Shown: positions 13,987-30,021 of the stretch, piece after piece
Layout of the letters: each line of letters begins with the position of its first letter
Position numbering within the stretch: position 1 is the first letter of the stretch
Origin: Candidatus Saccharimonadota bacterium
GTDB taxonomy: Bacteria > Patescibacteriota > Saccharimonadia > Saccharimonadales > UBA4665
DNA length: 32,000 bases
Assembly: GCA_016700375.1 (NCBI GenBank)
Contig: CP065016.1
Span: 1,200,001 to 1,232,000 of the forward strand
Direction of reading: 5' to 3'
Notes under the pieces: generated by a model
The model's input: only the letters and a program-made list of their open reading frames with translations
Told to the model about the DNA's origin: nothing
Database searches by the model: none
Translations under genes and position numbers: made by a program

Positions 13987-14012
13987 GCTTACACTATAGC
14001 ACTCATGGCTTT

Positions 14013-15034: not shown

Positions 15035-16138
15035 TTATGAAGCGGAGGGGTTAGCCCCTCCTATAATGTAACCTTTCGCGGCGAGGAGTTCGGCCATGAG
15101 AATGGCGCCGCCTGCGGCACCGCGGACGGTGTTGTGTGCGAGGGTTATGAATGTCCACTCGTGCTCACCAAGCTGGCGCAAACGTCCCATGCTTACGCCC
15201 ATGCCGTTTGCGTAGTCACGGTCTAAGCCAGTCTGTGGCCGATTATCTTCCTCAAAGTACTGAATAAGCTGCGATGGAGCTGACGGTAGGTCGAGCTCTT
15301 GCAGCGGATTTCCAAACGCAGCAACTGCCGAGATAATAGCCTCCCGAGTAGGGGCTTTCTGGAATGAAACCCGAAGTGAAGCCATGTGGCCGTCAGTTAC
15401 GGGAACACGAATACAGGTAGCAGTGATGGTCGGGCTTGTGGCGGGTATGACTGTACCATCTTTTGCTTCGCCCCAAATTTTGGTTGGCTCTTTTTCACTC
15501 TTTTCTTCTTCGCCGCCAATGAAGGGGATGACATTGTCAACCATCTCTGGCCAGGTTTCAAACGTTTTACCGGCACCAGATATAGCCTGCAGGCTGGTGA
15601 CATCTACGCTGACAGGCTCAAATTCTTTCAGCGCCGTTAGAACGGACACATATGACTGAATAGAGCAGTTTGGCTTGACAGCAATGAGTCCGGTGGTCCA
15701 CCCGCGGTTTTTACGCTGGGCATCCACTAGTGCTACATGATCAAAATTAACCTCCGGCATTATCATTGGCACATCGGGCGTCCATCGGTGGGCGGAGTTG
15801 TTTGATATAACGGCAACTCCCGCGCTAGCATAAGCTTCTTCTAAACGGCGGATGTCTTCTTTTTCCATGTCGAGGGCGCAAAAGGCAACGTCAACGCTGG
15901 CCGCAATTGTCTGCAGGTCGTCTTCCACCGAAAGCACGGTTAGATTTGCAATGGCCGTCGGGATATCCGTGGGCATAGCCCATCTGCCCGCTACGGCATC
16001 GGCATACGATTTTCCGGCAGAACGGGGTGAGGCGGCAACGGTAGTCACCGTAAACCACGGGTGGTTTTCAAGCAGTGCAATAAAACGCTGCCCGACCATG
16101 CCGGTGGCGCCGAGTACGGCAGCCTTGTATGTGTTCAT
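15035..16138 (-). CDS. asd: Aspartate-semialdehyde dehydrogenase
   Basis: MNTYKAAVLGATGMVGQRF Rossmann N-terminus and an active-site Cys in VKPNCSIQ. Its ATG overlaps the lysC stop by 1 nt (TGATG at 16140-16136). The upstream ORF-track extension was rejected. Confidence 0.88.
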   Translation of the reverse strand: MNTYKAAVLGATGMVGQRFIALLENHPWFTVTTVAASPRSAGKSYADAVAGRWAMPTDIPTAIANLTVLSVEDDLQTIAASVDVAFCALDMEKEDIRRLEEAYASAGVAVISNNSAHRWTPDVPMIMPEVNFDHVALVDAQRKNRGWTTGLIAVKPNCSIQSYVSVLTALKEFEPVSVDVTSLQAISGAGKTFETWPEMVDNVIPFIGGEEEKSEKEPTKIWGEAKDGTVIPATSPTITATCIRVPVTDGHMASLRVSFQKAPTREAIISAVAAFGNPLQELDLPSAPSQLIQYFEEDNRPQTGLDRDYANGMGVSMGRLRQLGEHEWTFITLAHNTVRGAAGGAILMAELLAAKGYIIGGANPSAS

Positions 16139-17547
16139 CACTTTTTTCCTTTCGTGTTGTACAGCGCATCGTGGATGCACTGCAATGCTTTTGCATCTTC
16201 GGTACTTTCGACCACGATGGTAATATTTAGCTCCGAGGAACCTTGGGCAATGGCAATTACATTAACATTGCCATTGCCAAGTGCGGTGAATATTTTGCCC
16301 GCCATACCAACGTGCTGGCGCATGCCCGTGCCGACCACCGCTATGAGTGAGACGCCACCATGGTACTCAACAAAATCAATCCGCTTCGCACGTACTTCAC
16401 TGGCAAAAGCTTGTCGCAACACCCGGGTAGCCACCTGACCAGCGGCCTTTTCTACTACTATGGTGATATTGTTTTCAGACGATGCCTGCGATATGAATAG
16501 CACGTTGACTTTTGCGGCAGCCATCGTGTCGAACACGCGCGACGCGGTGCCAAAAACGCCGCGCATACCTTTGCCCTGAATGGTTATCATGGCAAGGTCT
16601 TTCATGAGGGTAAGTGCTTTAGCGCCCTTGGCGGCCGCATCCCCATTAGGAGTAATTTGCGTACCAGGGTGCTCAGGGTTCATGGTGTTTTTTATAACAA
16701 TAGGTATACCCAGCTCGGCCGTGGGAATCATGGTGCGTGGGTGAATAACTTTGGCCCCAAAATAGGAAAGCTCCGAGGCTTCTTCGTACGACATTCGCTC
16801 TATGGTACGCGCGGCCGGCACAACGCGTGGGTCACTGGTCATGACACCGTTCACATCGGTCCATATCCAGACTTCGTCGGCGTCAAGGCAGTAGCCAAGG
16901 ATTGTTCCTGAAAAATCCGAGCCGCCGCGACCGAGTGTGGTGGTTACACCGTCACGCGTGGCGCCAATGAAGCCGGTTACTACTGGCACAGTACCTTTTT
17001 GGACTAATGGCATGAGTAATTTTTGTGCTTTTTTCTTAGAAATGGTCAGGAGCGGCTGTGCGTCATTGAATGTATCGTCTGTCACTAGAAAGTCGGTGGC
17101 ATTTACCGCGACGGCCGGTACGCCCTGGGCGTTCAGCGCGGCAGCAACTAGGTGTATGGAAAGCCGCTCGCCAAATGACAAAATAAGGTCGCGTCCCCGC
17201 GGGGTGAGCTCGCCCAGTGACGTCACGCTTTTCAGAATATTTCCCAGAATAGCAATCTTGCTGTCAATAATTTCGCGTAAATCGGCCTCAGCGGTTGGTT
17301 CGAGCTGTAGGCCGGTGATGGCGGTGTCGTGCACGGCTTTTACGGCAGCAAGTTTTTTCGCAATTACACGTTTCCTATTGCCGGTGGTGGCGAGTCGCGC
17401 CATTTCCTCGAGCTGATTGGTTATTTGCGTCATGGCAGAGGTCACTACCACTGGCTGGCTTTTTTGGTAGCCTTTCACGAGCTGTGCGACATCGCTGATA
17501 CGCTCGGCGCTGCCGACAGATGTGCCGCCAAATTTCATTACTATCAT
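16138..17547 (-). CDS. lysC: Aspartate kinase
   Basis: MIVMKFGGTSVGS N-terminal kinase signature, 469 aa, with C-terminal tandem ACT-like regions. Confidence 0.9.
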   Translation of the reverse strand: MIVMKFGGTSVGSAERISDVAQLVKGYQKSQPVVVTSAMTQITNQLEEMARLATTGNRKRVIAKKLAAVKAVHDTAITGLQLEPTAEADLREIIDSKIAILGNILKSVTSLGELTPRGRDLILSFGERLSIHLVAAALNAQGVPAVAVNATDFLVTDDTFNDAQPLLTISKKKAQKLLMPLVQKGTVPVVTGFIGATRDGVTTTLGRGGSDFSGTILGYCLDADEVWIWTDVNGVMTSDPRVVPAARTIERMSYEEASELSYFGAKVIHPRTMIPTAELGIPIVIKNTMNPEHPGTQITPNGDAAAKGAKALTLMKDLAMITIQGKGMRGVFGTASRVFDTMAAAKVNVLFISQASSENNITIVVEKAAGQVATRVLRQAFASEVRAKRIDFVEYHGGVSLIAVVGTGMRQHVGMAGKIFTALGNGNVNVIAIAQGSSELNITIVVESTEDAKALQCIHDALYNTKGKK

Positions 17548-18596
17548 GCAGATTGCTCCAAGCGGGAGAGTCGCACGTAATCGTCAATCATGGCGTTGAC
17601 GGTTGGTTCAACACCAGCACCGGGTCCCGTCACGCTGTAAACACCGTCACTATTGTTTGGTCCGAGCCCAACCACCAATCCGTTCCCGGCCTGGGTAAGC
17701 GGCGCAAAACTTGCAAACAACGGGTTTGCCGTGAGCGGGCGGAAGCCAGCAACGAGTCGCCAGCCGTCGATTGTGACATCAAACCCACCGAGCCGTTTTC
17801 CTGGGTCTGCCGAGCTACCGGTAGGGTAGAACGAGGCAATGAAACGGTGTGGCTCGCTAGCACCAACGGCAGCGTTAATATCTTCGTCGGACAGTGAAAA
17901 CGCCAGCATCTCGGGAGTGACGGTGGTATTGCCCAGCCCGAGTGTATTAAATATGATGGACATTTTCTTTGGTATGTCGCCCTCGGCTTCGCCGCGTAAA
18001 ACTGCTTGCGGCGAGTCGGCGCCTGGTTCAGCGTAACCGGCCTTCACCGCATGCTCCACCGCAGCTTCAAGTGCAATATCACTCCCATTGGCAGGGGCAA
18101 CCTCACTCATGATGGCGGTCATTGTGCCGTTTAGAACGGCGTGCATTTCAGTTATATTTGCTTGGTCTATATTGTACTGCTCGGCCACACGCAGCATACG
18201 CGTGCCGCCGCCCACCGTCGTCGTGATGCCAAACCGGGTGAAATCTACAGAGGCCGTTTTGAGCTCCCGGAAGAAATGCGAGAGCGCACCCTTTTCAGCA
18301 GTGACCGCCATTTTGCCTTTTGCTAAGATAGTCGATACATAGCCGTAGGCTAACGTGCCATCGCCGCCGGAAGGAATGGCTAGGAACATAACATCGGGAA
18401 TGTTTGCATCGGCAAACTGTGTGGCACTGTCTATTTTGCCACTAGCATCTGTAATGCCGTTTACTTCTACTATCATGCGCGGTTTTTGCTCCAGACCGAG
18501 CCGGCTCGCGACATGCTGCTGCCCAATCTGCCGTTCGAGCTCACGACCAATGTTCCCGCGCCCAATGAGTCCCCATGTTTTTACGCTATCTGCCAT
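17544..18596 (-). CDS. hom: Homoserine dehydrogenase
   Basis: Dinucleotide-binding WGLIGRGNIG and the catalytic-domain LNGT motif (HAVLNGTMTAIMSE). It shares a 4-nt ATGA overlap with the lysC start. A GAGGAG SD precedes the ATG at 18596. Confidence 0.75.
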   Translation of the reverse strand: MADSVKTWGLIGRGNIGRELERQIGQQHVASRLGLEQKPRMIVEVNGITDASGKIDSATQFADANIPDVMFLAIPSGGDGTLAYGYVSTILAKGKMAVTAEKGALSHFFRELKTASVDFTRFGITTTVGGGTRMLRVAEQYNIDQANITEMHAVLNGTMTAIMSEVAPANGSDIALEAAVEHAVKAGYAEPGADSPQAVLRGEAEGDIPKKMSIIFNTLGLGNTTVTPEMLAFSLSDEDINAAVGASEPHRFIASFYPTGSSADPGKRLGGFDVTIDGWRLVAGFRPLTANPLFASFAPLTQAGNGLVVGLGPNNSDGVYSVTGPGAGVEPTVNAMIDDYVRLSRLEQSA

Positions 18597-18713
18597 ATAA
18601 ATCTCCTCTATAGTAAATAGTATAACGTAAACTTTCGTGACAAAAACAAGCAGGTGGCAACATTTTTTTGATGAAAGTAGTAAATGGGGCAATGGTGTAC
18701 TACAATCAAGTAT

Positions 18714-19187
18714 ATGAATCCATCAAACGACTCCAAGAAAATCATCATTGTCGAAGATAACACTGCGCTTGCAGAAATATACAAAACCCGTCTAGAGCTA
18801 CTCGGCTATACCTGTTTTGTGGCCTACAATGGCATAACTGGCCTCTATTTTATCCAAAAAGAAATTCCAGACTTGGTCCTGCTTGACCTGATGATTCCTG
18901 ATATATCTGGTGGCCAGCTACTTGCTACCATGCGGGGAACCGACTGGGGAAAGAATATTCCAGTATATGTTATCTCTAATCTTAATGAAACGGAGGCGCC
19001 CAAAGACCTCCGCGACCTGGGCATTTCTGGGTATTCGGTGAAGGCCATGATGACCGAAGATACCGTAGACCGAATAGTAAATGGCATCTTGCGCCCAGAT
19101 ATGCAGCAGGAACCCATCTCTGCGCCAGACACCCCGCCTGCCGGTGCCACGCTAGCCGACGTGCCGTTCCACGAAGCACCGCAGTAG
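18714..19187 (+). CDS. Orphan response regulator (receiver domain only plus short tail)
   Basis: KIIIVEDN, DLVLLDLMIPDISG (phospho-acceptor Asp), VYVISN and SVKAM make up the CheY-like residue set. There is no output domain. TACAAT lies 7 nt upstream of the ATG with no SD. Confidence 0.8.
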   Translation: MNPSNDSKKIIIVEDNTALAEIYKTRLELLGYTCFVAYNGITGLYFIQKEIPDLVLLDLMIPDISGGQLLATMRGTDWGKNIPVYVISNLNETEAPKDLRDLGISGYSVKAMMTEDTVDRIVNGILRPDMQQEPISAPDTPPAGATLADVPFHEAPQ

Positions 19188-19335
19188 TAAGTAGTAAGTA
19201 GTAAGTAGTAAGTAGTAAGTAGTAAGTAGTAAGTAGTAAGTAGTAAGTAGTAAGTAGTAAGTAGTAAGTAGTAAGTAGTAAGTAGTAAGTAGTAAGTAGT
19301 AAGTAGTAAGTAGTAAGTAGTAAGTAGTAAGTAGT
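19184..19335 (+). repeat. Perfect heptanucleotide tandem array (GTAGTAA) x ~21.7
   Basis: 152 nt of uninterrupted GTAGTAA. The response-regulator stop TAG (19185-19187) is inside the first unit. The array has stops in all three plus frames and is open on the minus strand. Confidence 0.98.
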
Positions 19336-19336
19336 C

Positions 19337-19358
19337 GCGCCGAAAAGGCGCATTTTTT
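19337..19358 (+). terminator. Intrinsic terminator directly after the heptamer array
   Basis: GCGCC-GAAAA-GGCGC followed by ATTTTTT. Confidence 0.6.
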
Positions 19359-19498
19359 ATGCTTAAGCTACTCGTAAAACATACTATACCACATGTTTTT
19401 TTGACGATTAACAGAGGTAAAATTTCATGTTATATAAATCACAACGGCAAAATCTAAAAGTTTGATTGCATAGAAAAAATGTATGATATAATAAGTAC

Positions 19499-19596
19499 TA
19501 GCAGTTTGAGATGAATCTTGCGAGACAGCTCAATCTGCCGTGGTTGTGATGTGAAGTTTTGGGAAGTATAAAAAAGCCAGCGTACTGCTGGTTTTT
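19499..19596 (+). ncRNA. Candidate ~100-nt small RNA (promoter-to-terminator unit)
   Basis: An extended -10 TGATATAAT lies at 19484-19492. An internal hairpin is GCAGTTTGAG...CTCAATCTGC. The terminator is AAAAAGCCAGC-GTACT-GCTGGTTTTT (19571-19596). Only a 12-codon ORF lies within it. Confidence 0.25.
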
Positions 19597-19663
19597 GTGT
19601 TTTATATACTGCATGGAGCGTTCAGTTATGACGTGATGTATTTGCGTTCGAGTCCTGCTTTGC

Positions 19664-19715
19664 TCAAGCATACAAATAGAGCCTACCTTACGGCACTTTA
19701 TTTGTATGGCTGGGG
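19664..19715. repeat. Hairpin repeat unit A (TCAAGCATACAAA...TTTGTATGGCTGGG)
   Basis: 10-bp stem CATACAAATA / TATTTGTATG (19669-19678 / 19699-19708). It shares both flanks with unit B. Confidence 0.6.
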
Positions 19716-19805
19716 ATGAGGGATAGCGCTTCCCTCGGCTACGCCTCGTCGCTTCTCCGTTCTCTGCGCTCACATACGCCGAACCTCGTTCTATAATCCC
19801 CCACT

Positions 19806-19856
19806 TCAAGCATACAAAAAGACCCGGGCGAAGCCGAGTCTTTTTGTATGGCTGGG
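19806..19856. repeat. Hairpin repeat unit B; resembles a bidirectional intrinsic terminator
   Basis: 13-bp stem CATACAAAAAGAC / GTCTTTTTGTATG (19811-19823 / 19838-19850) around a GC-rich inner hairpin, giving an A-tract/hairpin/T-tract layout. It is nested in an outer inverted repeat GTTCTATAATC / GATTATAGAAC. Confidence 0.55.
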
Positions 19857-19945
19857 CATCAAGAACGATTATAGAACTTTGATAGGGGTAGATAGTTTAG
19901 ATATCATCGAAAAAGAAGAGGACGATGATAGTGAGGAGAATAGCG

Positions 19946-20428
19946 ATGTTTAGGCTATTCTCACGCACAACTGACACGCAAGGGCTATGTAGTTCTCGTC
20001 TCTTCAACAACGAGTCGTTTTACAAGTCTTTTACTAGCGACTTACGGTACGCGAAACAACGTGTCCATATTGAGAGTCCGTTCATCACAAAAAGGCGCAT
20101 TGATGAGTTGCTACCGGTCTTTGAGGGACTACGGCGCAGGGGCATAGCAGTTACAGTTAACACTCGATGCCCTGACGAGCATGACGGAGAATATGTCAGG
20201 CAGGCTTCCGACGGCATTCAGGCAATGCAGGAGCTGGGGGTAAAGGTGCTTTATACCGTAAAGCACCACCGCAAGCTAGCAGTGATTGATGATGTTCTGT
20301 GGGAGGGCAGCTTAAATATACTCTCACAAAATGATAGCTGCGAGATCATGAGGCGTATCGTATCGGCAATACTTACTGAGGAGATGCTACGATTTACAGG
20401 AGCTAATAAATACGTATCTACTTATTGA
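19946..20428 (+). CDS. Single-HKD phospholipase-D-family nuclease (Nuc-like)
   Basis: HKD motif HHRKLAVIDDVLWEGSLNILSQND (HxKx4Dx6GSxN), ~160 aa. A GAGGAG SD lies 7 nt before the ATG at 19946; an alternative ATG is at 19925. The 3' end overlaps the convergent HAD-like gene by 11 nt. Confidence 0.8.
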   Translation: MFRLFSRTTDTQGLCSSRLFNNESFYKSFTSDLRYAKQRVHIESPFITKRRIDELLPVFEGLRRRGIAVTVNTRCPDEHDGEYVRQASDGIQAMQELGVKVLYTVKHHRKLAVIDDVLWEGSLNILSQNDSCEIMRRIVSAILTEEMLRFTGANKYVSTY

Positions 20429-20825
20429 GAAAGACTTGAGCTAGCTTTTCGAGCATATCAGGGTCTTTATGGAGGTCAACCATGATGAAGTTTTGAACTG
20501 CCTCATGTTTCTCAAGTACATTGAGTTCGTTAGGCCAAAGATCGTCATCAAACCATAGAAAATCTTGCTCAAAGTCGATTGCATCGGTCTTGAGTTCATT
20601 CCACTCCGACGGCTTCACCTTGTCTAGCAAGATGACAGTTTCGGGATTGAGATGGGGAGCGAGTATTTCTTTTGCCCTGTTTTCACCTTTCCAGTTGTGA
20701 GTAGTCAGCCAATATGTTGAGTCGGGGTACTTCTCCAAAACAGCATGCAAAAACTCGTCGGCATGACGCGCCGCTTCTTTGTCATTTGCTAGGAGTACTC
20801 CGTCGATATCAAGATAAATGTTCAT
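20418..20825 (-). CDS. HAD-superfamily hydrolase-like protein (possible nucleotidase/phosphatase)
   Basis: Motif I at the N-terminus (IYLDIDGVLL), a candidate motif II Thr (WLTTH) and an acidic motif (LWFDDDLW). A GGGAGGA SD lies upstream, with a TAA|ATG junction to the upstream gene. Confidence 0.6.
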   Translation of the reverse strand: MNIYLDIDGVLLANDKEAARHADEFLHAVLEKYPDSTYWLTTHNWKGENRAKEILAPHLNPETVILLDKVKPSEWNELKTDAIDFEQDFLWFDDDLWPNELNVLEKHEAVQNFIMVDLHKDPDMLEKLAQVFLNK

Positions 20826-22469
20826 TTAATTTCCTCCCGTCACACTAGGCGGTACGCCTGTTTTGTACGAAACGTATAAAGCAATAATAGCAACTATAAG
20901 TGATAAAGCCGATACCGCAAGCGCCCATCGGCCTGTTTTTATGTCGGTTCCCGTTGCGCCGAGCTGTGATATGGTCGTGAGGATATCCCTATAATCACTA
21001 TCTAGCTTTGATAATCTCTTGAAAGTTTCATCATTGCGATCCATGACATCATTGAAGAAATCAATAGGCTTTTTCTCTTCGGGCTTCAACTTTGCAGTGA
21101 AGATCGGCGCAGGGGTCATTACGAAGTTAGCGCCCTCAAACCATCGTTTGTGCCGACGAAGATTGGCAACATCTTGTCGGATACTAGCAAGCGTGAGACT
21201 TGAATCGAGGACAATGCCACTTAAACTGTTTACGCTGCCCACCTTAAACTTTTTGTGCTGAAGTTGAGCGCCATCACGCAATTTTGCATATTGTGCTTCG
21301 AGAACTAAGAGTAATTGAGATATAGCTAGAAGTACAAGTGTCGGGCCGACGCGTTCTTCTGCAATGTATGAGACAGCGTGATTAGCGTCACCGCCAAAAC
21401 CCTTGAAGTTCTCAGTCGATTTAACTATCTTACCTCTATTAACGATAAGTCCCCATGTACGTTCCGGGTCTATAACTGACTCAGAGAGCCTACTAGCTTG
21501 AGCTAGCAACATGTCGGGAATCTCTGGCGCAGTTATCCTATAAAAATCTGAGCCGTCGATACCCAGCGCCCGAAGCGCATCATGAACATCATTGTCAGTT
21601 CTTTTCGTGCTTTTGCTGACCGGATTATATTTTTCCGTCATCATTACATCCATCGAGAGCTGTTTCTCGCCATGCATAGCGAAGTACCCAGGACAATACT
21701 TAGTCATCCAATCTCTAGCTAGACTATGGAGGTCATCTCGGGTCTTCTGAGTTGCTTTATATGTAGCGAATTGCCGATCTACGGGATGCAATTTGCTAAA
21801 CGCGCCCATTGTTTTTGAGCGTTCCATATACGGCTCATGGTCAGCATGCCAGACATCATCAAGCTTTTTAGAGTGCGCATCGTTGAAATTAACACGCGCG
21901 ACAACTGCGGTCAGGCCTGATCCCACTTGGATAGCCTTAAGTTGTATCCATTCAATGCCGTCAGGCAGCTTCGTGCGATGGGCATCAGGTACATAATATC
22001 CCTCTGTATTAACTATATCTGCCAATCGCCACCAAGACATACCGTTACGTGATCGTGCCTGCGCAAGACGTTCACTATTAGTTTCTCTGGTTGCCGTTCG
22101 GGTACGTTCGTTCCACTTGTTCTTCCTAATGTATTTCTCAAGTGTAGCGGCTTCGTTTGGTGTAAACAACTCCACGACAATGACGGAAGCTACAGTAACA
22201 TGCTCATCCTTGGGTATATGTACATTGTGATAATGGTCAACCTTATTCCACGATTTCAACCGGTCAAGTTCGTTAATCTGTATGAGATTATTTACCCCCT
22301 GCAAGGCAAGCGTGCGTATGGGCGCAGGAGTTACTTTCTTGTGCTTGATAAGCCACCATAATACTTTGTATGCGGTATCGTAGTGCCATCTCCAACCATG
22401 ACCAATCTCAGGCACTTCATCAAAAGCCTCTTTTACAAACGAATGTTCTTTGGGCTTTTTAGTAGCCAT
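20826..22469 (-). CDS. 547-aa protein of unknown function with C-terminal transmembrane anchor
   Basis: Long ORF in an operon context. I recognise no catalytic motif. A hydrophobic C-terminal segment (WALAVSALSLIVAIIALYVSY) and an internal hydrophobic helix (GPTLVLLAISQLLLVLEA) are present. Confidence 0.8.
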   Translation of the reverse strand: MATKKPKEHSFVKEAFDEVPEIGHGWRWHYDTAYKVLWWLIKHKKVTPAPIRTLALQGVNNLIQINELDRLKSWNKVDHYHNVHIPKDEHVTVASVIVVELFTPNEAATLEKYIRKNKWNERTRTATRETNSERLAQARSRNGMSWWRLADIVNTEGYYVPDAHRTKLPDGIEWIQLKAIQVGSGLTAVVARVNFNDAHSKKLDDVWHADHEPYMERSKTMGAFSKLHPVDRQFATYKATQKTRDDLHSLARDWMTKYCPGYFAMHGEKQLSMDVMMTEKYNPVSKSTKRTDNDVHDALRALGIDGSDFYRITAPEIPDMLLAQASRLSESVIDPERTWGLIVNRGKIVKSTENFKGFGGDANHAVSYIAEERVGPTLVLLAISQLLLVLEAQYAKLRDGAQLQHKKFKVGSVNSLSGIVLDSSLTLASIRQDVANLRRHKRWFEGANFVMTPAPIFTAKLKPEEKKPIDFFNDVMDRNDETFKRLSKLDSDYRDILTTISQLGATGTDIKTGRWALAVSALSLIVAIIALYVSYKTGVPPSVTGGN

Positions 22470-22471
22470 GC

Positions 22472-22789
22472 CTACTTTACAGTCTTACCGTCTCGGACAG
22501 CTTCGAGTAATTCTCGGTGACGAAGTTCATTCCGTTTGTTTTTTCGTGCGCCGCGCCGCCATAGCCGCCAAGGAATGAAAAGAATGCCAAACAGTACATA
22601 CATAATAAAGTACCAACACGCCACAAACATCCATGCACAAGCGATCAACATGAGGGCAATCGGCACGAGCAATAGCCACTTTATCCAGACGTTACCTGAA
22701 TTAGTTATTTTCCATATACGTTGAGCCGATCCCGAAAAAGAGAATGGCGCTGATACTACTATTTTTTCTGATGTTAACTTTTCACTCAT
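22472..22789 (-). CDS. 105-aa two-TM membrane peptide
   Basis: Two adjacent hydrophobic stretches (WIKWLLLVPIALMLIACAWMFVA and YFIMYVLFGILFIPW) are followed by a basic tail (RLWRRGARKNKRNELRHR). It shares an ATGA overlap with the upstream gene. Confidence 0.7.
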   Translation of the reverse strand: MSEKLTSEKIVVSAPFSFSGSAQRIWKITNSGNVWIKWLLLVPIALMLIACAWMFVACWYFIMYVLFGILFIPWRLWRRGARKNKRNELRHRELLEAVRDGKTVK

Positions 22790-24261
22790 AGCTTCCTCAA
22801 AACATTAAATATTTCAACCATCGCCAATGTATCCAGCTTGCAATATTCCAACAGATCAGCGAACAGCACCTCTTTATCTATTGAATCCTTACCATCAATC
22901 ACGCCTTGCATCCAAAGCCTCTGAGCGGATGCGCCCTCATGAATACCCAGTCCAGCGTAAGAGAGTGTTGGTACAAGAACGGGCAAAACTTTTTTGATAC
23001 TAGCACTACCGTAAAAGTCCTTATCCACGTACCAAAGTTTCGAGAATGGGAGCATGAGATCATTCATCCGATCATTAACATTGAGTAAGAAGTCTTTTAG
23101 TTCTGGTACTTCTTCGGCTAGAGTTTTATTGCAACTTTTCTCGAAGCCCATGTTCCATGCCAGAACCGTGCCCGTATCGCCAATATGGCTGCGTAGAGCC
23201 CCAGCGATATCTTTGCATGGGTTCGTGCCCTCACGGTGCAGGTACTCTTCGTGTCGTAGCTCAGAATCAGGAGAATCAAGTATGTGTAGTGAATACTGGA
23301 ATGGAACTTGTTGGTATGGGCGCATGCCCTCAAATGGAGGCACGATACCGGCGAGTGTTTCATAATCAAGGAAGTAGAGCGGGTATTCAAACGACCTTAG
23401 TAAGTCTTGGATTGGTTCATGGGTGATGAGCTGCTGATTAAGTTTTGCGGCAGTAGTTTGTTTATGCTGTTTTGGCGATAGCTTGAAGTCATCTGGGATA
23501 TCGGCAATTTTTTCAATACCGGCATCTTCAAGTGCTTTTACTTTTGCCGCATTGAGGCCGCAGAGATAATAAATACTGTCATTGGGCGGATTCGTGAGGC
23601 TTCTGTAGATTGATAGCCAATCCCCAAACGAACTACCGGCCGCAAGAACCGGCGATAGGTCGGGTATATCTGGTGATTGCATGACTTCAAGTGCTTCCTG
23701 AGCGTGCAGTTTTGTGGCTTCACTCAATGCATTCACTTCTGAGGTTACGTCAGTGATCGTACAGAACTCCTCAGGGTTGATGTTACCGTGACGTGTGTAT
23801 TCATTGTTGACGTGGACCACATTGATGTTCCGCACGGTAAAGCCAGATTCACGAAGTACATGAGCCTGAAATGCAAGGTCGGTTGCATGTTCAGGTTTCG
23901 CTTTAGTGCTGGATTTAATCTCGTATAGATCGAATGTCTTGTCGCCAACTACATGCACGACATCACATATACAGGTTAATTGCCCAGCAATAAAGCGAGC
24001 TTGGTAAATAGTCTTTGCGCCGCCAAGTAGTGCTTCCATGGTTTGTTCGGGCAATGCTAAGTAGCTGGCGTAGTCACTAAAGCCTAGTCGCACGCCATCA
24101 TCAAATAATTTTTCTGCGTAGCCCTCGAATAAGTTACCGGCGTCAAAGGTCGCCTGGGTATTGTCGTCAATATGGGGCAGCTTATCTTTGTCGTGCTTTT
24201 TGAGCCACAACCAAGCCGGATGTGCGAGGTAGAGCATATAATCCGACTTAGATAGCAGCAT
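22786..24261 (-). CDS. DUF2779-like protein: PD-(D/E)xK-type N-terminal domain plus DEDDy-like exonuclease-type C-terminal domain
   Basis: N-terminus LSKSDYMLYLAHPAWLWL and ICDVV...FDLYEIKSSTK (D...ExK). The C-terminal half has YPLYFLDYET, VLAWNMGFEKS and YCKLDTLAM (a DEDD-type residue pattern). The family assignment is from memory of the DUF2779 FLDFET hallmark. Confidence 0.7.
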   Translation of the reverse strand: MLLSKSDYMLYLAHPAWLWLKKHDKDKLPHIDDNTQATFDAGNLFEGYAEKLFDDGVRLGFSDYASYLALPEQTMEALLGGAKTIYQARFIAGQLTCICDVVHVVGDKTFDLYEIKSSTKAKPEHATDLAFQAHVLRESGFTVRNINVVHVNNEYTRHGNINPEEFCTITDVTSEVNALSEATKLHAQEALEVMQSPDIPDLSPVLAAGSSFGDWLSIYRSLTNPPNDSIYYLCGLNAAKVKALEDAGIEKIADIPDDFKLSPKQHKQTTAAKLNQQLITHEPIQDLLRSFEYPLYFLDYETLAGIVPPFEGMRPYQQVPFQYSLHILDSPDSELRHEEYLHREGTNPCKDIAGALRSHIGDTGTVLAWNMGFEKSCNKTLAEEVPELKDFLLNVNDRMNDLMLPFSKLWYVDKDFYGSASIKKVLPVLVPTLSYAGLGIHEGASAQRLWMQGVIDGKDSIDKEVLFADLLEYCKLDTLAMVEIFNVLRKL

Positions 24262-24264
24262 AGT

Positions 24265-24702
24265 CTATTTGCCTCTTAACCCTACGAGCGTATTGATTAG
24301 CCTTGGAAACTCACCCGATTCAAATGCACCTACTAATGCGCCATCTGAAAAGCGATCATTGCGAATTACTGCCGTTAGTAACTTAAGAGTTGTAGGTACG
24401 TCTAGGGCATCATACTTCGATTCATCACTATTCTTATACCAGTCGCGGCCCTCATCCCATTCTGACCACTTAAAATTAACGATAAACTCATTACCGTAAA
24501 AGAATGCGACGAACTCGCTTATAAGAGGATCGGATACCCAGTATGGCATTTGTATAACGCCATTTTCGTCAGTCTCACCACCCTGAGTCTTGCCCCAACT
24601 ACCCTCATGGGACTGGACGCGATTGTTGATATCAACAAATTGCTCCCAAGTCTCATCACTGAGTTCCGAAAATGCTTTTACCGATTCTTCTGTTGCGTCC
24701 AT
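24265..24702 (-). CDS. 145-aa strongly acidic protein of unknown function
   Basis: An ORF with a GAGGAGGA SD embedded in the upstream gene end and a TAA|ATG junction. Asp/Glu clearly outnumber Lys/Arg. It is Trp-rich (SEWDEGRDWY). Confidence 0.7.
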   Translation of the reverse strand: MDATEESVKAFSELSDETWEQFVDINNRVQSHEGSWGKTQGGETDENGVIQMPYWVSDPLISEFVAFFYGNEFIVNFKWSEWDEGRDWYKNSDESKYDALDVPTTLKLLTAVIRNDRFSDGALVGAFESGEFPRLINTLVGLRGK

Positions 24703-26886
24703 TTATTCATCCTCCTCATCAGTCGTCTTTTTGGCAGTGAGTTCGGCTTTGATATCATCATGTGCGAGATTGAACGTACTTCCAAGTGCAGCAATAAGCC
24801 GCCGTTTGCTGTTTGTGTTTGTTCCGGTGTCGATGAAGTACCCAGTGTCTAATATCTCGGCGCTGTTATAGAACGCGCTGGCATCCTGTCGGATAAAGCG
24901 CGAAAGATATTCATCCTCAGTTACCATCTCGATAAAGTCGGGATTTCGGCTGTAAATAGCTTCTGCGATAGCGTCCAGCGCCTCGGCCCAAGTTGTCACC
25001 GAACTCTCTTCGCCGAATACTTCGACCGAACGGATACCTGCGCCTTTCAGATCCATTTCATCGAGCAAGTATATCGTGGTGTCTTCTTCTACCGGCTGGA
25101 AAGCGGTTACAGGGAGTGGCCATACTTTTTTGAGACTGGTAACCCACCAATTCTGACGCTCCTTGAGAGTATCTTCGTTCCAGGTATCGTGTTTCGCAAT
25201 CCATTCATTGAGTGGTAATTTGCTATCAGCGAAGCCGACTTTTCGCACTTCTCCCGTTTTCTTATCCTTGACCTCAAGATTCATTTTGTCGAGATATGGA
25301 CGGTTAGAATACTCAGAGTTATAGCCAGTTAGCGTGAGGTTGGCTAGTGTATGGAGATAATCACGGTGAATGCGCTCAAAGTCATCACCGAGCATAGCCT
25401 GCCAGTCTTTGCTTGCCAGCGTCTGGGGCATGACATGCTCAATTGAGAGTTTTAGCTTGCCATCGGAAATCTGATGCAGCGTATGGACGGCCTCTTTTGA
25501 TGATTCCTCGGCAGCAGTGAGAACATAGACGAGGAATGAGTTTCGCTGGTAGTACGCCTCGCGCGAGCGAATCGCGTTTTCATACTCTGCGTCGTCTGGC
25601 ATGCGCGTTTGACCGATACGGTTAAGCAGAATATATCGAAGTACCTCTACGTAATCTGCGTCGGGGCTTGTCTTCTGGTAGCTTAATACATCTTTGTGAA
25701 GCGATGCCAAGAAGCGGTCTACGCTCGTAGTATCTATGCCGCTCACGATACGACGCGAGAAGTACGTTTCGATGAGCTTAAAGACATCCTCAAGCTGTAA
25801 ATCGGTAAGTTCACCAGCCGCATGATGGCGCAACACATTCATGGCGAACGGAATATACAAATCAATCTGCAAGTAGCGCATCTTGAAGATGGTTTCACTA
25901 ATGCCTTTGTACTTTGGCTCAAACTCGCTCGTGTCAATCAGCTTCAGGAGCTTGTAAAATCCAAGTGACTCGACGATATCGCTATAGAATACGTCAATCT
26001 TGTCTTCTTCTTGTGCTTCACCGACATGCTTATCAAACTGCTTCTTGAACTCCGGGTAGACGGCATCCAATCGTACAATAGCTTGGCGCTTCGAGATTAT
26101 GTAGCTACGGAAGAAATCAGTAATATGGTCTTTGTTAGAGTCCACCAGCGATTCTTCGATAATTGACCAGTACTTTTCATAAACTTGGTTGCGGAGCTGA
26201 TCATTGCTAAGCATGAGTGCAAAGTTACGAATTTTGTCACCATCTGTCAAAGGCTTGCCGGTCGAGTTAATGCTCTCGAAGACGCGCTGAGGGTTGTCGT
26301 CGTTGCCGTTGAGAGTGATGGAAATAACCTCAAACATACGCAAGCCGTCAATGTACTTATCAAGGCCGGTACGCGCCTGGAAGTACTTGCGGAATGTCGA
26401 GTAGACCTGATAGATATTGCTCACGCGTTCGCGAGGTTCGAGGCGCGATTCTTCGCCATCTTTATCAAAAATATGTTGCAAAATCTGGTTGTCAGTTGTG
26501 ACGGTACGGAGCTTGACTTTGTTCTTGTCAATATTCGCGTTGAAGAGATAACGATCGCGGATAAGTTCTGGTGTCGTCTCTGGGTTTTCAATCAGCGATG
26601 GATCTTTTTTGACGAGGTGATAAATTGCCGTTACCATCAAAAGCGACGTCGTGACGCGCTGTTGACCGTCAATAATAGCTACTGAATAGCTGCTGGCGGT
26701 GTCTTCGACAAGCACAACCGTACCGAAATAATGGTTTCTCCGCTTAGCAACACTCTCTTCGAGATCAATCAGAAACTCATTCGCATTGTTTGTTTGCCAT
26801 GCATAGGGTCGTTGGAAGTTCGGTATCTCATAGTATGTCTCTGAGGCGTTGAGAATCTTCTGGATATTAGTCTGTGCCGAAATCAT
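24703..26886 (-). CDS. GmrSD-family type IV restriction endonuclease (DUF262 + DUF1524)
   Basis: DUF262 motifs YEIPNFQRPYAWQ and IIDGQQRVTTSLL. DUF1524 His-Me finger motifs IEHVMPQT and HTLANLTLTGYNSEYSN. The ATG at 26886 sits 9-10 nt after an AAGGAGG and 1 nt after the upstream stop. Confidence 0.85.
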   Translation of the reverse strand: MISAQTNIQKILNASETYYEIPNFQRPYAWQTNNANEFLIDLEESVAKRRNHYFGTVVLVEDTASSYSVAIIDGQQRVTTSLLMVTAIYHLVKKDPSLIENPETTPELIRDRYLFNANIDKNKVKLRTVTTDNQILQHIFDKDGEESRLEPRERVSNIYQVYSTFRKYFQARTGLDKYIDGLRMFEVISITLNGNDDNPQRVFESINSTGKPLTDGDKIRNFALMLSNDQLRNQVYEKYWSIIEESLVDSNKDHITDFFRSYIISKRQAIVRLDAVYPEFKKQFDKHVGEAQEEDKIDVFYSDIVESLGFYKLLKLIDTSEFEPKYKGISETIFKMRYLQIDLYIPFAMNVLRHHAAGELTDLQLEDVFKLIETYFSRRIVSGIDTTSVDRFLASLHKDVLSYQKTSPDADYVEVLRYILLNRIGQTRMPDDAEYENAIRSREAYYQRNSFLVYVLTAAEESSKEAVHTLHQISDGKLKLSIEHVMPQTLASKDWQAMLGDDFERIHRDYLHTLANLTLTGYNSEYSNRPYLDKMNLEVKDKKTGEVRKVGFADSKLPLNEWIAKHDTWNEDTLKERQNWWVTSLKKVWPLPVTAFQPVEEDTTIYLLDEMDLKGAGIRSVEVFGEESSVTTWAEALDAIAEAIYSRNPDFIEMVTEDEYLSRFIRQDASAFYNSAEILDTGYFIDTGTNTNSKRRLIAALGSTFNLAHDDIKAELTAKKTTDEEDE

Positions 26887-26887
26887 A

Positions 26888-28051
26888 TTATTCATCCTCC
26901 TTGTTCGGCACAATCGCCTGTAAATCTTTGTCATAGTGAAAATCTACGATATCGCCGTTCTGTAGCATGTTGACTGCCTGCTCAATGGCAAGCAGTGGCA
27001 CTGAGTACCACTCACTCGGCGTATAGTCACGTCCGTCTTTGTCGATAATCGTCAGGTCTACTTTTGCATCGGCAAATATTCGATGAATAAAATGTTCTAC
27101 TTTTTGAGGATTATAGTCTCCAGTCAGTACATAGCTATCGACGACTTCTACGCCAGACATCAAGTATGTTGGGTCTTTTTCTGCATCTTTAATACGATCA
27201 GCCACAGTGGTAGTTGCGAATCCAATCTTGTGTAGATTCTTGATATTTTGCACTTGTGGACTATCGCTCAGTGAACGTAAAACGTAAATGTAGCCCACAA
27301 TAGTATCAGTGTCACTTAGCTCTTCGTATACGGATTCATCTGCTATCGGTACAATCTCATATCCATCTTCGTATAGACGCATAGAAAGTGATCGCCGGTA
27401 CATATTTGATTCAGTGCCATTTTCGTATATGATTCTAAACCGTTCTTTGTTCCGGTCGTATACCCATTTCTTCTCACCGGCATCAATGATGCGAAGCATC
27501 TGGCCAGCATGCACATAGTACGCCCCCATATGTAGTTGATTGACTGACACGTAACGACGGAGCTTTAGCTTGCCCTCTGCGAGAAGTTGCTGTTGTTCGA
27601 CAAATCCAGGTTTATACTCCTGAAAATCTGCTGCGTGTTTGCGGTCGGCTCGTTCTTTAACGGGTCGCGGCTTGGACAGTACTTTACTGACTTTTAGGAT
27701 GTCGTCGCCATCGCTACTAAATAATCCATATGTATCATCAGAAAATAGTTCGTCTATTGATTCTGGCGCTTCAAGTTCTTCGAGCAGTCCAAGACTATCG
27801 ACGGGCTTGAGCGCTTCAACCTTGTCTTTATTTGTTTTTATCGAGTTCAAACGAGCCGCTAATGATGCCTCGCTAATATCGGTTGCATTGATATCGGGCA
27901 AGCGATCATTGATTTCTACAAACTCGGTGATCTGTTTGAATGATGAGGTCAGTCGATCATCGGCAGTAATAGGCTTGGCTTTTTCCTGCGCAGTAAATAG
28001 ACCCTCGTTATCTGTATCGAATAGATTTATTAACTCATCAGAAAAGTCCAT
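26888..28051 (-). CDS. T5orf172 / GIY-YIG-superfamily domain protein
   Basis: The C-terminal domain VGYIYVLRSL...NLHKIGFATTTVADRIKD fits the T5orf172 (GIY-YIG-like) pattern. The N-terminal ~230 aa are uncharacterised. Its ATG overlaps the helicase stop (TAATG). Confidence 0.7.
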   Translation of the reverse strand: MDFSDELINLFDTDNEGLFTAQEKAKPITADDRLTSSFKQITEFVEINDRLPDINATDISEASLAARLNSIKTNKDKVEALKPVDSLGLLEELEAPESIDELFSDDTYGLFSSDGDDILKVSKVLSKPRPVKERADRKHAADFQEYKPGFVEQQQLLAEGKLKLRRYVSVNQLHMGAYYVHAGQMLRIIDAGEKKWVYDRNKERFRIIYENGTESNMYRRSLSMRLYEDGYEIVPIADESVYEELSDTDTIVGYIYVLRSLSDSPQVQNIKNLHKIGFATTTVADRIKDAEKDPTYLMSGVEVVDSYVLTGDYNPQKVEHFIHRIFADAKVDLTIIDKDGRDYTPSEWYSVPLLAIEQAVNMLQNGDIVDFHYDKDLQAIVPNKEDE

Positions 28052-30021
28052 TATGCCTGCTTTTCTTTCTCTCTAAGCCATGCTGCTTTACGAGCAGTCA
28101 GGTATGCTTGCGCCTGAGCAAGTAACTTCTCATTTTTATCAGGGCTATTGATTGCTGGGTACTTGCCGTCATGAGCCACGACGAATGCTTTGATCTGTGG
28201 CACGAGGGCAAGGGCATCTTCGTCTGACATGTCGATACGTGAGCCTGCTATCGTGTCTTGGATGACGCGGAATACATCAGCGCCAACGCGCTTCGAGATG
28301 ACTTCAAATGCGTGCTGGAATGGGTTTATAGAATCAATCAGGTCGATACTGAGTTCGTCAAGGTTCACAAAACTATTGGCGAGCGTGATAAACTTTTTGT
28401 CGCCATCTTCGGTAATCTTAGCAGTCTTAAATGCAAGATTACTTGCTAGGTACTGTCGGGTTACTTCGACTTCTTCCTCGTTAAGTCCAGGTAGACGTTC
28501 ACGAATGATTTTAGACTGTAAGTGCTTCATGTAGTCACCAGTATGGCCATTTGCCGCTGCACGCTGAATCTGTGTATCTTGCAGTACGGCTGCCGTTAGG
28601 TCTTCGAGTTCGGTGGCAAGAATATGTTTAACCTTTTCTGATGGTGGTTTTTTGAGGCCTTTAACAAATACTTCACCAGCCTTTGCTTTTTGGTCGGGTG
28701 ATGTACGTGGCGTGAATGTAAAGTTAGGCGCTAGTACTTGTTCCATCAAGAGAGAGGCGGTGATCGCCTTGAGCATGTTATTGACTGAAACTTGTATGTC
28801 GTCACTTGTGCCATTTGGCTGCACGATTAGATTTGTAAACTGCGCGTGAGACTTGTTGTAGCTATCACGAGTACAGCGGCCAATGATCTGCACGATCTCC
28901 GTCAGGCTTGCCCTGTAGCCTATAGTTAGCGCCTGTTCACAGTAGGGCCAGTCAAAGCCCTCCTTTGCCATACCGAGTGCGATAATGATGTCTACGCCAG
29001 CAATATCGTTTTTAGCAACGTCACTGAGGTACTGGGTGATCTTAGCCCTATGCAACGGGTCATCCTCTACGAGATTGGCGACTTTTACACGACGACCATC
29101 TGGCGTTTCTATGATTTCTACACCGGTCTCGCTGTCTTGTTCTATCCATGTCCCAATAAGGTCAAAAATGCGCGTAACTTCTTCGTGCTTACCAACTTGA
29201 GTCGATTCTTTTGAGTTGACGTTTGGAATGTGAATAATTGTCTTTTTATTCGTATCTAGCACAGCATCTAGTGCGCCGTCATCGAGATAACTACCAGTGT
29301 AGAAGTGATAGCCAATACCAAGCGTCTTGAGGTATGTATACCCATTGAGCTGTTCGTAATAGGTATAGGTTACTTTATCGAACTCTGATTCGTCTTCTGG
29401 CGTAAGGATTGGAATGGCATCGCCACGGAAGTATGAGCCGGTCATAGCAATAATCTGAATGTTAGTGCCGTTCATGACACGGTGCAGCAGTTCACCCAAT
29501 CGGCTGTTTTCGCTAACAGACACATGGTGGAACTCGTCGATAGCCAGAACGGTATCATTAAACAACTCCATAGGGAGTTCTTCGGCCTCAAATGCAAAAC
29601 GTAGGGTTGCATGAGTACAGACAAGTATCTTGTCATCGGACTTCATGAAGCTTGTAAATGATTTCACTTTTGATTTGTCGTCGCCAGTACCGAGGCAGAG
29701 ATTGTTGCGATCTTCTACTTCCCAGTCTGCGAAAAAGCCTGCTTCTGTCAGATTTGTGTTACCGAATGATGAACCGATAGATTTTTCTGGTACGGCAACG
29801 ATGACTTTTTTCTTGCCTTGGTTGATAAGTTTATCGAGGCCGACATACATAAGGGCACGAGACTTACCCGATGCTGGTGGCGCTTTGATGAGTAGATGAT
29901 TGCTGTTGCGCTTATCAAATGCGCGGCGCTGCATTTCGCGCATTCCCATTTCATCAGTCTTGGTACTTTCGCCAGTCTGTTCATAGGTTACATCAATAAT
30001 GTTCAGGGTTTCGTCGTTCAT
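28051..30021 (-). CDS. SF2 DExH-box helicase/translocase (ResIII-like)
   Basis: Walker A KAPPASGKS, motif II AIDEFHH, motif III MTGS and motif VI QIIGRCTR. The ~220-aa C-terminal region has no recognisable nuclease motif. It shares an ATGA overlap with the MTase stop and has an AAGGAG SD. Confidence 0.85.
   Translation of the reverse strand: MNDETLNIIDVTYEQTGESTKTDEMGMREMQRRAFDKRNSNHLLIKAPPASGKSRALMYVGLDKLINQGKKKVIVAVPEKSIGSSFGNTNLTEAGFFADWEVEDRNNLCLGTGDDKSKVKSFTSFMKSDDKILVCTHATLRFAFEAEELPMELFNDTVLAIDEFHHVSVSENSRLGELLHRVMNGTNIQIIAMTGSYFRGDAIPILTPEDESEFDKVTYTYYEQLNGYTYLKTLGIGYHFYTGSYLDDGALDAVLDTNKKTIIHIPNVNSKESTQVGKHEEVTRIFDLIGTWIEQDSETGVEIIETPDGRRVKVANLVEDDPLHRAKITQYLSDVAKNDIAGVDIIIALGMAKEGFDWPYCEQALTIGYRASLTEIVQIIGRCTRDSYNKSHAQFTNLIVQPNGTSDDIQVSVNNMLKAITASLLMEQVLAPNFTFTPRTSPDQKAKAGEVFVKGLKKPPSEKVKHILATELEDLTAAVLQDTQIQRAAANGHTGDYMKHLQSKIIRERLPGLNEEEVEVTRQYLASNLAFKTAKITEDGDKKFITLANSFVNLDELSIDLIDSINPFQHAFEVISKRVGADVFRVIQDTIAGSRIDMSDEDALALVPQIKAFVVAHDGKYPAINSPDKNEKLLAQAQAYLTARKAAWLREKEKQA

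Follow-up and report, generated by a model that had tools for sequence, protein, structure and literature searches.

Gene content and reading frames of the block

The window analyzed here is a stretch of 32,000 nt from a Candidatus Saccharimonadota bacterium (GCA_016700375.1, contig CP065016.1, positions 1,200,001 to 1,232,000 of the forward strand); coordinates given without a locus number refer to it. Its subject is a block of five minus-strand genes (20418-24702) lying between the genes for a GmrSD type IV enzyme and a convergent PLD-family nuclease. A previous sequence-only reading proposed the five genes as a single undescribed defence system. Comparison with related loci, fetched for this purpose and numbered with the prefix L (L001 is GCA_032229745.1), leads us to regard them as probably the 3'-terminal part of a long restriction array, all on one strand, within a Saccharibacteria defence island, assembled as a mosaic of modules rather than as one system. 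The DUF6508 protein of the block matches IPP75_06320, from a Candidatus Saccharibacteria metagenome-assembled genome (MAG), at 100% identity. The genes of the block and its immediate flanks are as follows (evidence in brackets; ORF, open reading frame).

24703-26934, minus strand: GmrSD type IV enzyme (Pfam, PADLOC)
24265-24702, minus strand: DUF6508 small acidic protein, 145 aa (ORF list; Pfam PF20118)
22786-24261, minus strand: DUF2779 protein, 491 aa (ORF list; Pfam PF11074)
22472-22789, minus strand: TM105, 105-aa basic peptide (ORF list; hydropathy)
20826-22469, minus strand: U547, 547-aa predicted tail-anchored membrane protein (ORF list; hydropathy)
20418-20825, minus strand: HAD135, 135-aa predicted cap-less HAD-superfamily phosphatase (ORF list; HAD motifs)
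19925-20428, plus strand: predicted single-HKD PLD-family nuclease, 167 aa, convergent (PLDc_2 and MkoC matches)

All five minus-strand ORFs named by the sequence-only reading are present in the ORF list, as are both flanking genes, and direct reading of the sequence confirmed the junctions of 0-4 nt that it had reported. The GmrSD stop codon TAA is followed at once by the DUF6508 ATG (24703/24702); DUF6508 and DUF2779 are separated by 3 nt (TAG-act-ATG, 24262-24264); DUF2779 and TM105 share an ATGA overlap (22786-22789); TM105 and U547 are 2 nt apart (TAG-gc-ATG, 22470-22471); and the TAA of U547 directly abuts the ATG of HAD135 (20826/20825). Purine-rich, Shine-Dalgarno-like runs (GAGGAGG, AAGAGG, GAGGAAG, and GGGAGGAAA) precede four of the five starts; the one before the U547 gene is weak. 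In comparisons with seven or eight related alleles, the ratio of nonsynonymous to synonymous divergence (dN/dS) is 0.03-0.25 for all five genes where substitutions suffice, and against L001 it is 0.05-0.19. On these data the five ORFs are genuine genes under purifying selection, and they would be co-transcribed. HAD135 and PLD converge with an 11-nt overlap of their 3' ends (20418-20428), which leaves no space for a terminator between them; the transcript of each gene would therefore run antisense into the other.

The protein features drawn from the letters by the sequence-only reading were likewise recovered. The 145-aa protein is acidic (pI 4.3); the 491-aa protein combines PD-(D/E)xK-like and DEDDy-like motifs, as a DUF2779 member with a weak Cas4 match and invariant catalytic residues; TM105 has one 46-residue hydrophobic stretch (residues 31-76), sufficient for about two transmembrane (TM) helices; the 547-aa protein is free of known motifs in the family libraries and has a single, C-terminal TM segment (residues 512-537); and the HAD-like hydrolase carries D6xD8, T41/T42, and D93-D95. 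The statement that the set matches no named system held for PADLOC-DB v2.0.0 (5,027 models), in which four of the five proteins match no system and DUF2779 has only weak Cas4/Cas1g matches; Kiwa, Zorya, Hachiman, Gabija, Septu, Lamassu, Thoeris, CBASS, Pycsar, DISARM, BREX, Druantia, and Wadjet are among the systems covered. A PHROGs search with the five proteins likewise gave no useful match. The assignment to a defence operon agrees with the MmeI-like restriction-modification (R-M) enzyme, DEAD helicase, T5orf172 protein, and GmrSD encoded upstream.

Tight coupling, which had been taken as an argument for co-function, does not carry that weight here. Junctions of the same kind occur between genes that are separable in related islands (GmrSD and DUF6508; Shedu and the 547-aa gene in L034/L036; DUF6508 and TM105 in L022), and lysC and hom, among the housekeeping genes of the window, overlap by 4 nt (4831/4835). 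Because junctions remain tight whichever genes adjoin, the packing is a property of the array and not the sign of a fixed system, a lesson that applies to compact genomes in general.

Modularity and horizontal transfer

The comparison of about 20 related loci yielded six architectures, among them the following.

Architecture A (window, L011, L026, L035; L030 the same without PLD): MmeI-DEAD-T5orf172-GmrSD-DUF6508-DUF2779-TM105-U547-HAD, PLD convergent
Architecture C (L012, L031, L032): HerA/TraG-like gene and GmrSD remnant, followed by all six genes
Architecture D (L022): ...GmrSD-DUF6508-TM105-U546-HAD, PLD convergent; DUF2779 cleanly absent
Architecture E (L034/L036): MmeI-DEAD-T5orf172-Shedu SduA-U547-HAD, PLD convergent; without GmrSD, DUF6508, DUF2779, and TM105
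Architecture F (L007/L008; 47-75% protein identity): UvrD-HsdR-HsdM-HsdS-189 aa-DUF2779-TM101-U551-HAD132, PLD161 convergent

The set of five genes is thus broken up in L022 and in L034/L036, and the claim that it constitutes one co-functional system is not supported. U547 and HAD135 are always kept, and PLD is kept in all but one locus (L030); PLD, left out of the set by the sequence-only reading, accompanies U547 and HAD135 more faithfully than do DUF6508 or DUF2779. DUF2779 is dispensable (absent in L022, L034, and L036), DUF6508 is absent from L034/L036 and L007, and TM105 is conserved in L007 (65% identity) and L022 (85%) and absent from L034/L036.

Measured against L001, divergence at synonymous sites (dS) decreases step by step through the block, from 0.95 in DUF6508 through 0.27 in DUF2779, 0.09 in TM105, and 0.08 in U547 to 0.04 in HAD135. 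This difference of approximately 25-fold indicates that recombination has broken the block between genes. DUF6508 is the most diverged of the five (dN/dS 0.12 against L001); its alleles are 79-99% identical while DUF2779 stays at 97%. Diversifying selection was considered for DUF6508, given its 80% identity next to neighbours at 97-99%, and was rejected in favour of recombination, since dS is also high and dN/dS is 0.08-0.17. The block is a mosaic of at least three separately inherited modules. In L012 (7384-7764; also in L031 and L032) the last 138 codons of GmrSD are left upstream of DUF6508, beside an oppositely oriented HerA/TraG-like ATPase gene; this remnant is a deletion or recombination scar in the island.

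Near-identical blocks were found in other Saccharibacteria MAGs. At the DNA level the window is 95% identical to L001 over 19849-24687, 95% identical to L012 over 19840-25044, and 96% identical to L011 over 19849-32000. Core proteins encoded in the same chromosomal neighbourhood of the window and L001 are 54-74% identical (LeuRS, RNase III, and TrmD 63% each), and the U547-HAD-PLD part of the block is approximately 97-99% identical in DNA between genomes whose core proteins differ to this degree. Thus, PLD and the five genes have recently been exchanged between deeply diverged Saccharibacteria.

The shared block ends at an exact base, window position 19849, with the operon strand reading ...CGTTCTT(G/T)ATGCCCAGCCA up to the break (site 19836-19862). 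Unrelated sequence follows the same breakpoint in at least eight flanks (L001, L011, L012, L022, L027, L028, L035, and L036), and the block-end motif TGGCTGGGCATCAAG is also present in L026, L031, L032, and L034. Just outside the edge lies a terminator-like hairpin (19811-19850) with a 17-bp stem and T-runs on both sides, which would serve as the terminator of the long minus-strand operon. This hairpin belongs to the second of two copies of an element of about 55 nt (19664-19717 and 19806-19859, 142 nt apart; TCAAGCATACAAA...TTTGTATGGCTGGG[G/C]AT). The edge at 19849 falls inside the second copy, so that roughly the final 11 bases of the block recur in part beyond it; the element may serve as a target site of the att or terminator type. 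Within the fetched DNA the block-end motif has no inverted or direct partner save for the partial copy 142 nt away in the window, and the other end of the island was not found. The recent movement of a six-gene cassette between Saccharibacteria whose core proteins are about 60% identical, with an end defined to the base, points to an unrecognised site-specific mobilisation mechanism. No tRNA was found by a tRNA scan of the window, which therefore offers no tRNA integration site; a megablast search of 19400-27000 against Escherichia coli genomes returned no match.

The U547 family, DUF2779, and their companion proteins

U547 has no match in Pfam, PADLOC, NCBIfam, or PHROGs; Pfam searches with 16 members of its family returned no match even at E ≤ 5, and a U547 profile matched no PDB sequence. 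A word-indexed search gave only 19 homologues, while a full profile search gave a far larger family, with 1,091 cluster representatives at E ≤ 1e-3, of which 201 reach E ≤ 1e-30. The loci fetched belong to Saccharibacteria (43-99% identity to U547), Actinomycetota (named members 30-39%), and unassigned metagenome contigs. The named actinomycetotal carriers are Propionibacterium cyclohexanicum, Cellulomonas, Prauserella, Saccharothrix, and Kitasatospora, the last represented by a 729-nt fragment only. Beside homologues of 50% identity or less, none of the other four genes is present. A remote homologue (24% identity over 221 aa) is encoded on an Agrobacterium pAt plasmid among genes for a helicase with DUF2290, SIR2 with AAA, and HsdR-N.

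The genes that adjoin U547 in these loci are mostly of a defence or mobility type, and nine of the ten neighbours tested in PADLOC match a model. They include type I R-M genes with a YgjP gene whose stop the U547 start overlaps (L015 and L042), PDC-S53 (L042), a GajA-GajB fusion with STAND_TPR (L043), a SIR2/ThsA-like gene (L039), a PDC-S37/Hhe-like helicase (L010), a mad8-like HerA ATPase (L009), SduA (L034), PD-Lambda-1 (L047), DUF4238-Pers (L002), DUF4268 (L048), and TniQ (L018); serine or tyrosine recombinases lie beside U547 in L003, L010, L011, L013, L015, and L020. At L015 (9154-11674) and L042 (7157-9677), both Actinomycetota-type, the gene for the YgjP-like metallopeptidase closes the type I R-M operon and U547 begins in its stop region, an overlap that suggests co-transcription of U547 with the R-M genes. 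Judged from these neighbourhoods, U547 represents an unannotated family that appears to recur in defence islands of Saccharibacteria and Actinomycetota. Relatives of U547 and DUF2779 lie repeatedly beside known defence genes; the five genes do not co-occur as a set.

In the kind of evidence on which it rests, namely recurrent placement among defence genes and on mobile islands, U547 resembles the PDC and HEC candidates of PADLOC; it differs in that U547, TM105, HAD135, and DUF6508 match none of the 5,027 PADLOC v2 models. Searches of a phage collection with U547 (tblastn), of phage and plasmid collections with HAD135 (tblastn), and of IMG/VR with U547, HAD135, and DUF2779 found no match, so that these genes are not phage-borne in the collections searched. 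In Actinomycetota, members of this family of at least 1,091 clusters look like stand-alone defence genes, including in the culturable P. cyclohexanicum and Cellulomonas. Should U547 be a defence protein, it would add a new member to a familiar class, the membrane-anchored effectors.

The AlphaFold2 model of U547 (pLDDT 81, pTM 0.79) comprises N-terminal helices, an alpha/beta domain (about residues 90-350), a hairpin of helices at 362-439, and, at 471-537, a long helix leading into the TM segment. Among the invariant residues of U547 are D162, E212, R398/D399, and D490/D492. Its top PDB fold matches by Foldseek are CorA and ZntB chains (E 0.014, TM-score 0.2-0.33); with residues 1-360 modelled alone (pLDDT 79) the CorA matches disappeared with the stalk and no PDB fold was better than E 0.036, and a search of viral folds in BFVD returned nothing. 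We rejected U547 as a CorA/MIT transporter: Pfam CorA does not match, there is one TM segment rather than two, the GMN motif is absent, and the likeness is lost without the stalk. CRISPR type III-associated CorA, a membrane effector, has a neighbouring signal-degrading hydrolase. U547 shares with CorA an alpha/beta domain predicted to be cytoplasmic, a stalk of long helices, and a membrane segment at the C terminus, and is adjoined by the small hydrolase gene HAD135, but no cyclase, CRISPR, or other signal generator is present at the U547 locus; from the model, the resemblance would be architectural at most. Among variants of the family, the L013 homologue is split into two ORFs, P0093 and P0096 have an N-terminal GNAT acetyltransferase fusion (PDB acyl-CoA N-acyltransferase, E 1e-4), and P0060 has a long N-terminal extension with several hydrophobic stretches (by eye).

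TM105 (pI 10.5, with a basic C-terminal tail) has no family match in Pfam, PADLOC, NCBIfam, or PHROGs, and shows no homology to the small TM proteins encoded beside other DUF2779 or U547 genes. At L047 (9686-10105, 139 aa), L010 (11811-12248, 145 aa), and L009 (11005-11571, 188 aa), the gene after a distant U547 homologue encodes a small hydrophobic protein unrelated in sequence to TM105; small membrane partners may recur beside U547 without being homologous to one another.

DUF2779 matches PF11074 over the full length of the model (E 1.4e-38, 132.5 bits versus a threshold of 23.3; residues 296-421 on model positions 1-126 of 126). Across 13 sequences, D100, D111, E114, and K116 are invariant, as are the DEDDy residues D299, E301, E374, Y473, and D477. 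The Cas4 match of residues 100-185 is weak (PF01930, 19.2 bits versus a cut-off of 22.7, E 1.4e-3), and in PADLOC only weak Cas4/Cas1g matches were found (Cas4 models at E 3e-4 to 3e-3). From these residues the protein is predicted to join an N-terminal Cas4-like PD-(D/E)xK domain to a C-terminal DEDDy 3'-5' exonuclease, with both predicted active sites intact, as the family has been described (PMC13621843, PMC3985635). The four-cysteine Fe-S cluster of Cas4 was not found: of seven cysteines, C99 and C474 are invariant and C377 is nearly so. Linkage to cas1/cas2 and a CRISPR array was not seen: the proteins searched, ten at 19925-32000 and ten from housekeeping ORFs at 20-18692, include no cas product. 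Searches of PDB sequences with DUF2779 and DUF6508 returned nothing, and a function for DUF2779 was not found in the literature.

The nearest described relative is the UU173-type solo Cas4-DEDDy protein (MMSYN1_0389 of JCVI-syn3.0; RNase H-like family F.17), which has the same two domains with D...ExK and D-E-(D/E)-Y-D residues. The window protein differs in its length (491 aa versus about 650 aa), in its NCBIfam UU173 score (52 bits, far under the model's cut-off of 225), and in its setting: it is found in mobile defence islands, and sister islands do without it, whereas in Mycoplasma the gene is quasi-essential. Homologues of DUF2779 at E ≤ 1e-20 number more than 5,693 and include a dense series at 56-77% identity; few are named, and these are mostly from Saccharimonadales or other Patescibacteria. 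Three loci sampled by identity among the homologues, all without U547, were all defence islands:

L049: type III Mod-Res-GmrSD_N-DUF2779-DUF898-Zeta/AAA_33 kinase-2H phosphoesterases-NUDIX
L050: HsdRMS-167 aa-DUF2779-PD-T4-3-154 aa-PDC-S18-151 aa-SspH-like ATPase-HNH
L051, 150-8258 (Saccharibacteria-type contig): full-length Avs4 (PADLOC, 1,971 bits)-DUF2779-141 aa-SspH/mad8-like FtsK ATPase, with overlaps

These contexts give a first clue to what DUF2779 may do; the dual nuclease is widespread, and in a minimal Mycoplasma cell it is quasi-essential. The 141-aa protein of L051 is a HAD135 homologue (54% identity, E 3e-44), encoded directly after DUF2779 with no U547 or TM105 between.

HAD135 (pI 4.6; 75% identical in L007), the best-conserved gene of the block, has D6, D8, T41/T42, K69/K71/K79, and D93-D95 invariant in five sequences, corresponding to HAD motifs I-IV. 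Its sole Pfam match is below threshold (HAD_SAK_2, E 0.008, 16.9 versus 27.5 bits), and among PDB sequences there is a noise-level NagD match only (E 0.62). With two cap-less HAD phosphatases that work on polynucleotide ends, the phosphatase domain of T4 Pnkp and HAD_SAK_2 of the 'Swiss Army Knife' RNA-repair proteins, it shares the DxD, T/S, and terminal DDD motifs and is small, cap-less, and nuclease-adjacent; unlike these it is without kinase or ligase partner domains, and its HAD_SAK_2 score is sub-threshold.

The PLD protein matches PLDc_2 just under the 27-bit cut-off (E 9e-6, 26.0 bits), with HxKx4D at residues 115-122; in PADLOC it is closest to the C-terminal region of MkoC (E 1.3e-13). 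One HxKx4D in about 165 aa is what it has in common with single-HKD PLD defence nucleases (Nuc/BfiI, DrmC of DISARM, the C-terminal PLD of Mokosh MkoC, and DpdK). It differs from them in being convergent, in having its own promoter-like site, in travelling with U547 and HAD, and in having no Mokosh helicase partner. DISARM DrmA and DrmB were not matched in PADLOC, and the PLD protein is nearest MkoC, not DrmC. The promoter-like site (19879-19907, plus strand; TTGATA-17-TATCAT, 10 of 12 positions, by consensus match only) lies inside the shared block.

DUF6508 matches PF20118 (E 6e-32, 110.6 bits versus 23.6), and this domain is present in every listed homologue whose query coverage is 64% or more; close ones are mostly from Saccharibacteria. 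Distant homologues are solitary and lie in non-defence contexts, beside nrdDG (L023) or a PPIase and a sigma factor (L024/L025). No homology was found between DUF6508 and the small proteins in the same slot of L007 (189 aa) and L050 (167 aa), and no mention of DUF6508 was found in the literature.

Interpretation and island context

The breaking and reuse of the set in related islands, the stepwise dS, and the independent distributions of its members argue for the reading given at the outset, a modular tail of a restriction array, which we hold to be the probable one. That decaying or spurious ORFs merely happen to lie side by side in a compact genome has next to no likelihood: tight packing is indeed common in this genome and one U547 homologue (L013) is split, but the purifying selection on all five genes (dN/dS 0.03-0.25), their full-length homologues across phyla, invariant catalytic residues, and the confident U547 model (pLDDT 81) refute it. 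One co-functional system of five or six genes, with DUF2779 as nucleic-acid-processing sensor, TM105 and U547 as membrane effectors, HAD135 as small-molecule or end hydrolase, DUF6508 as acidic regulator, and PLD as nuclease, is in our judgement quite unlikely. Every junction is of 0-4 nt, the full set occurs behind three different upstream contexts, and the order DUF2779-TM-U547-HAD-PLD persists in L007/L008 at 47-75% identity beside a different (type I) R-M system. Yet U547-HAD-PLD is intact and equally tight in L022 without DUF2779 and in L034/L036 without DUF6508, DUF2779, and TM105; L007 has no DUF6508 homologue; distant U547 homologues have no partner at all; DUF2779 and DUF6508 are distributed far more widely and independently; and dS differs about 25-fold along the block.

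A non-immune explanation has somewhat better prospects than a single system, and we still consider it unlikely. DUF2779 and HAD would then be a housekeeping pair for DNA repair or nucleotide salvage in a reduced genome, marking by chance a recombination hotspot in which defence genes collect, and U547 (with TM105) a mobile-element function such as entry exclusion or control of DNA transfer. This would suit the quasi-essentiality of DUF2779 in JCVI-syn3.0 and its apparent commonness in Saccharibacteria, the end-healing and nucleotide enzymes that follow it in L049 (Zeta/AAA_33 kinase, 2H phosphoesterases, and NUDIX), and the occurrence of U547 homologues on conjugative plasmids, directly after a HerA/TrwB-like ATPase (L009), and beside recombinases and TniQ. 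However, the sampled Saccharibacteria DUF2779 genes are flanked on both sides, on the same strand, by defence genes recognised by PADLOC and not by core genes; DUF2779 is dispensable in L022, L034, and L036; the HerA-like ATPases beside U547 score as mad8/DndH/SspH-like defence ATPases; and no relaxase or type IV secretion system genes accompany the Saccharibacteria cassette.

Several observations weigh against the modular, defence-associated reading itself. Around U547 no recognisable defence gene was seen in several contexts (L016, L017, and L003-L006), and the context samples are small (approximately 22 independent contexts for U547 and three for DUF2779 outside the block) and carry no genome-wide background. 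The fold of U547 has no significant PDB match, which leaves the idea of a pore or effector without structural backing. The pairing of DUF2779 with a HAD gene outside the block comes from a single locus (L051), and the gene order kept in L007 (49-75% protein identity) leaves room for cooperation among its members where they occur together. DUF2779 is quasi-essential in JCVI-syn3.0, a minimal Mycoplasma (PMC13621843), and this, together with its commonness, fits a housekeeping nuclease that merely marks a hotspot.

Under the modular reading, TM105-U547-HAD135 and the convergent PLD make up a terminal cassette, which moves horizontally and is retained nearly everywhere. The individual steps, all of them biochemical or physiological roles and each much less certain than the reading as a whole, could be as follows. 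U547 would be a tail-anchored cytoplasmic sensor or effector of the abortive-infection type, acting at the membrane; its long stalk helices may mediate oligomerisation, and TM105 would be an optional partner in the membrane. DUF2779, seemingly a common resident of Saccharibacteria defence islands, would degrade foreign DNA from the ends cut by neighbouring restriction enzymes. We infer that HAD135 works on macromolecular ends, because it has no cap module: it could trim 3'-phosphate ends so that the DEDDy 3'-5' exonuclease proceeds, or alternatively could hydrolyse a phosphorylated ligand that controls U547. PLD would be a nuclease effector with its own promoter-like site, and DUF6508 seems to be an orphan acidic protein in the block.

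A bolder form of this proposal, which we put forward only tentatively, is that U547 defines a new anti-phage family of the abortive-infection type, acting alone in Actinomycetota and with a two-TM peptide, HAD, and PLD in Saccharibacteria, and that the Saccharibacteria DUF2779 is a dedicated enzyme of post-restriction DNA destruction. If so, the U547 family would be common to the Saccharibacteria epibionts and the phylum of their hosts, and the DUF2779 family would gain its first function. The analysis turns five genes of no known role into three testable objects, namely the U547 family, DUF2779, and the mobile cassette. Phage pressure on Saccharibacteria and other bacteria of the candidate phyla radiation, whose genomes are tiny, has become experimentally accessible just recently; despite this genome size, the island stacks nine or more genes of a defence type.

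The array upstream of the block (24703-32000) is context and lies outside the cassette. Besides GmrSD, it encodes the following.

26888-28051, minus strand: T5orf172/MUG113 protein (Pfam, PADLOC)
28051-30021, minus strand: DEAD helicase (Pfam, PADLOC)
30018 to beyond the window end, minus strand: MmeI-like type IIG/IIL enzyme (Pfam, PADLOC)

The MmeI match spans model positions 299-910, and full-length copies are present in L022/L036. DISARM or BREX was rejected for this enzyme, which is best explained as type IIG/IIL R-M: its top PADLOC match is type IIG R-M at E 1e-228, versus 4e-35 for DrmMI. In L001 and L007 the upstream array is replaced by other R-M systems. The genes for these three proteins are found together, as a unit, in L011, L022, L026, L030, L034, L035, and L036 (helicase 94-100% and MmeI protein 59-100% identity); they may form a type IIL system that is assisted by the helicase and a GIY-YIG protein.

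The leftmost 18.7 kb of the window are housekeeping DNA (ddl, leuS, rnc, trmD, pyrD, pgi, asd, lysC, and hom), with a GC content of about 0.52 compared with about 0.45 in the island. Saccharibacteria are usually without amino-acid biosynthesis; the genes pyrD, pgi, asd, lysC, and hom (10411-18692; GC 0.52-0.54), which lie between trmD and the island and are missing from the syntenic leuS-rnc-trmD locus of L001, would therefore be unexpected and may have been acquired. No RNA family was found by Rfam in 18500-25000 at E ≤ 0.1. The window has only two tandem arrays, both of 7-nt repeats; one of these is a perfect repeat of AGTAGTA (21.9 copies, 19183-19335) in the intergenic region between hom and the island, a tract that could vary in length.

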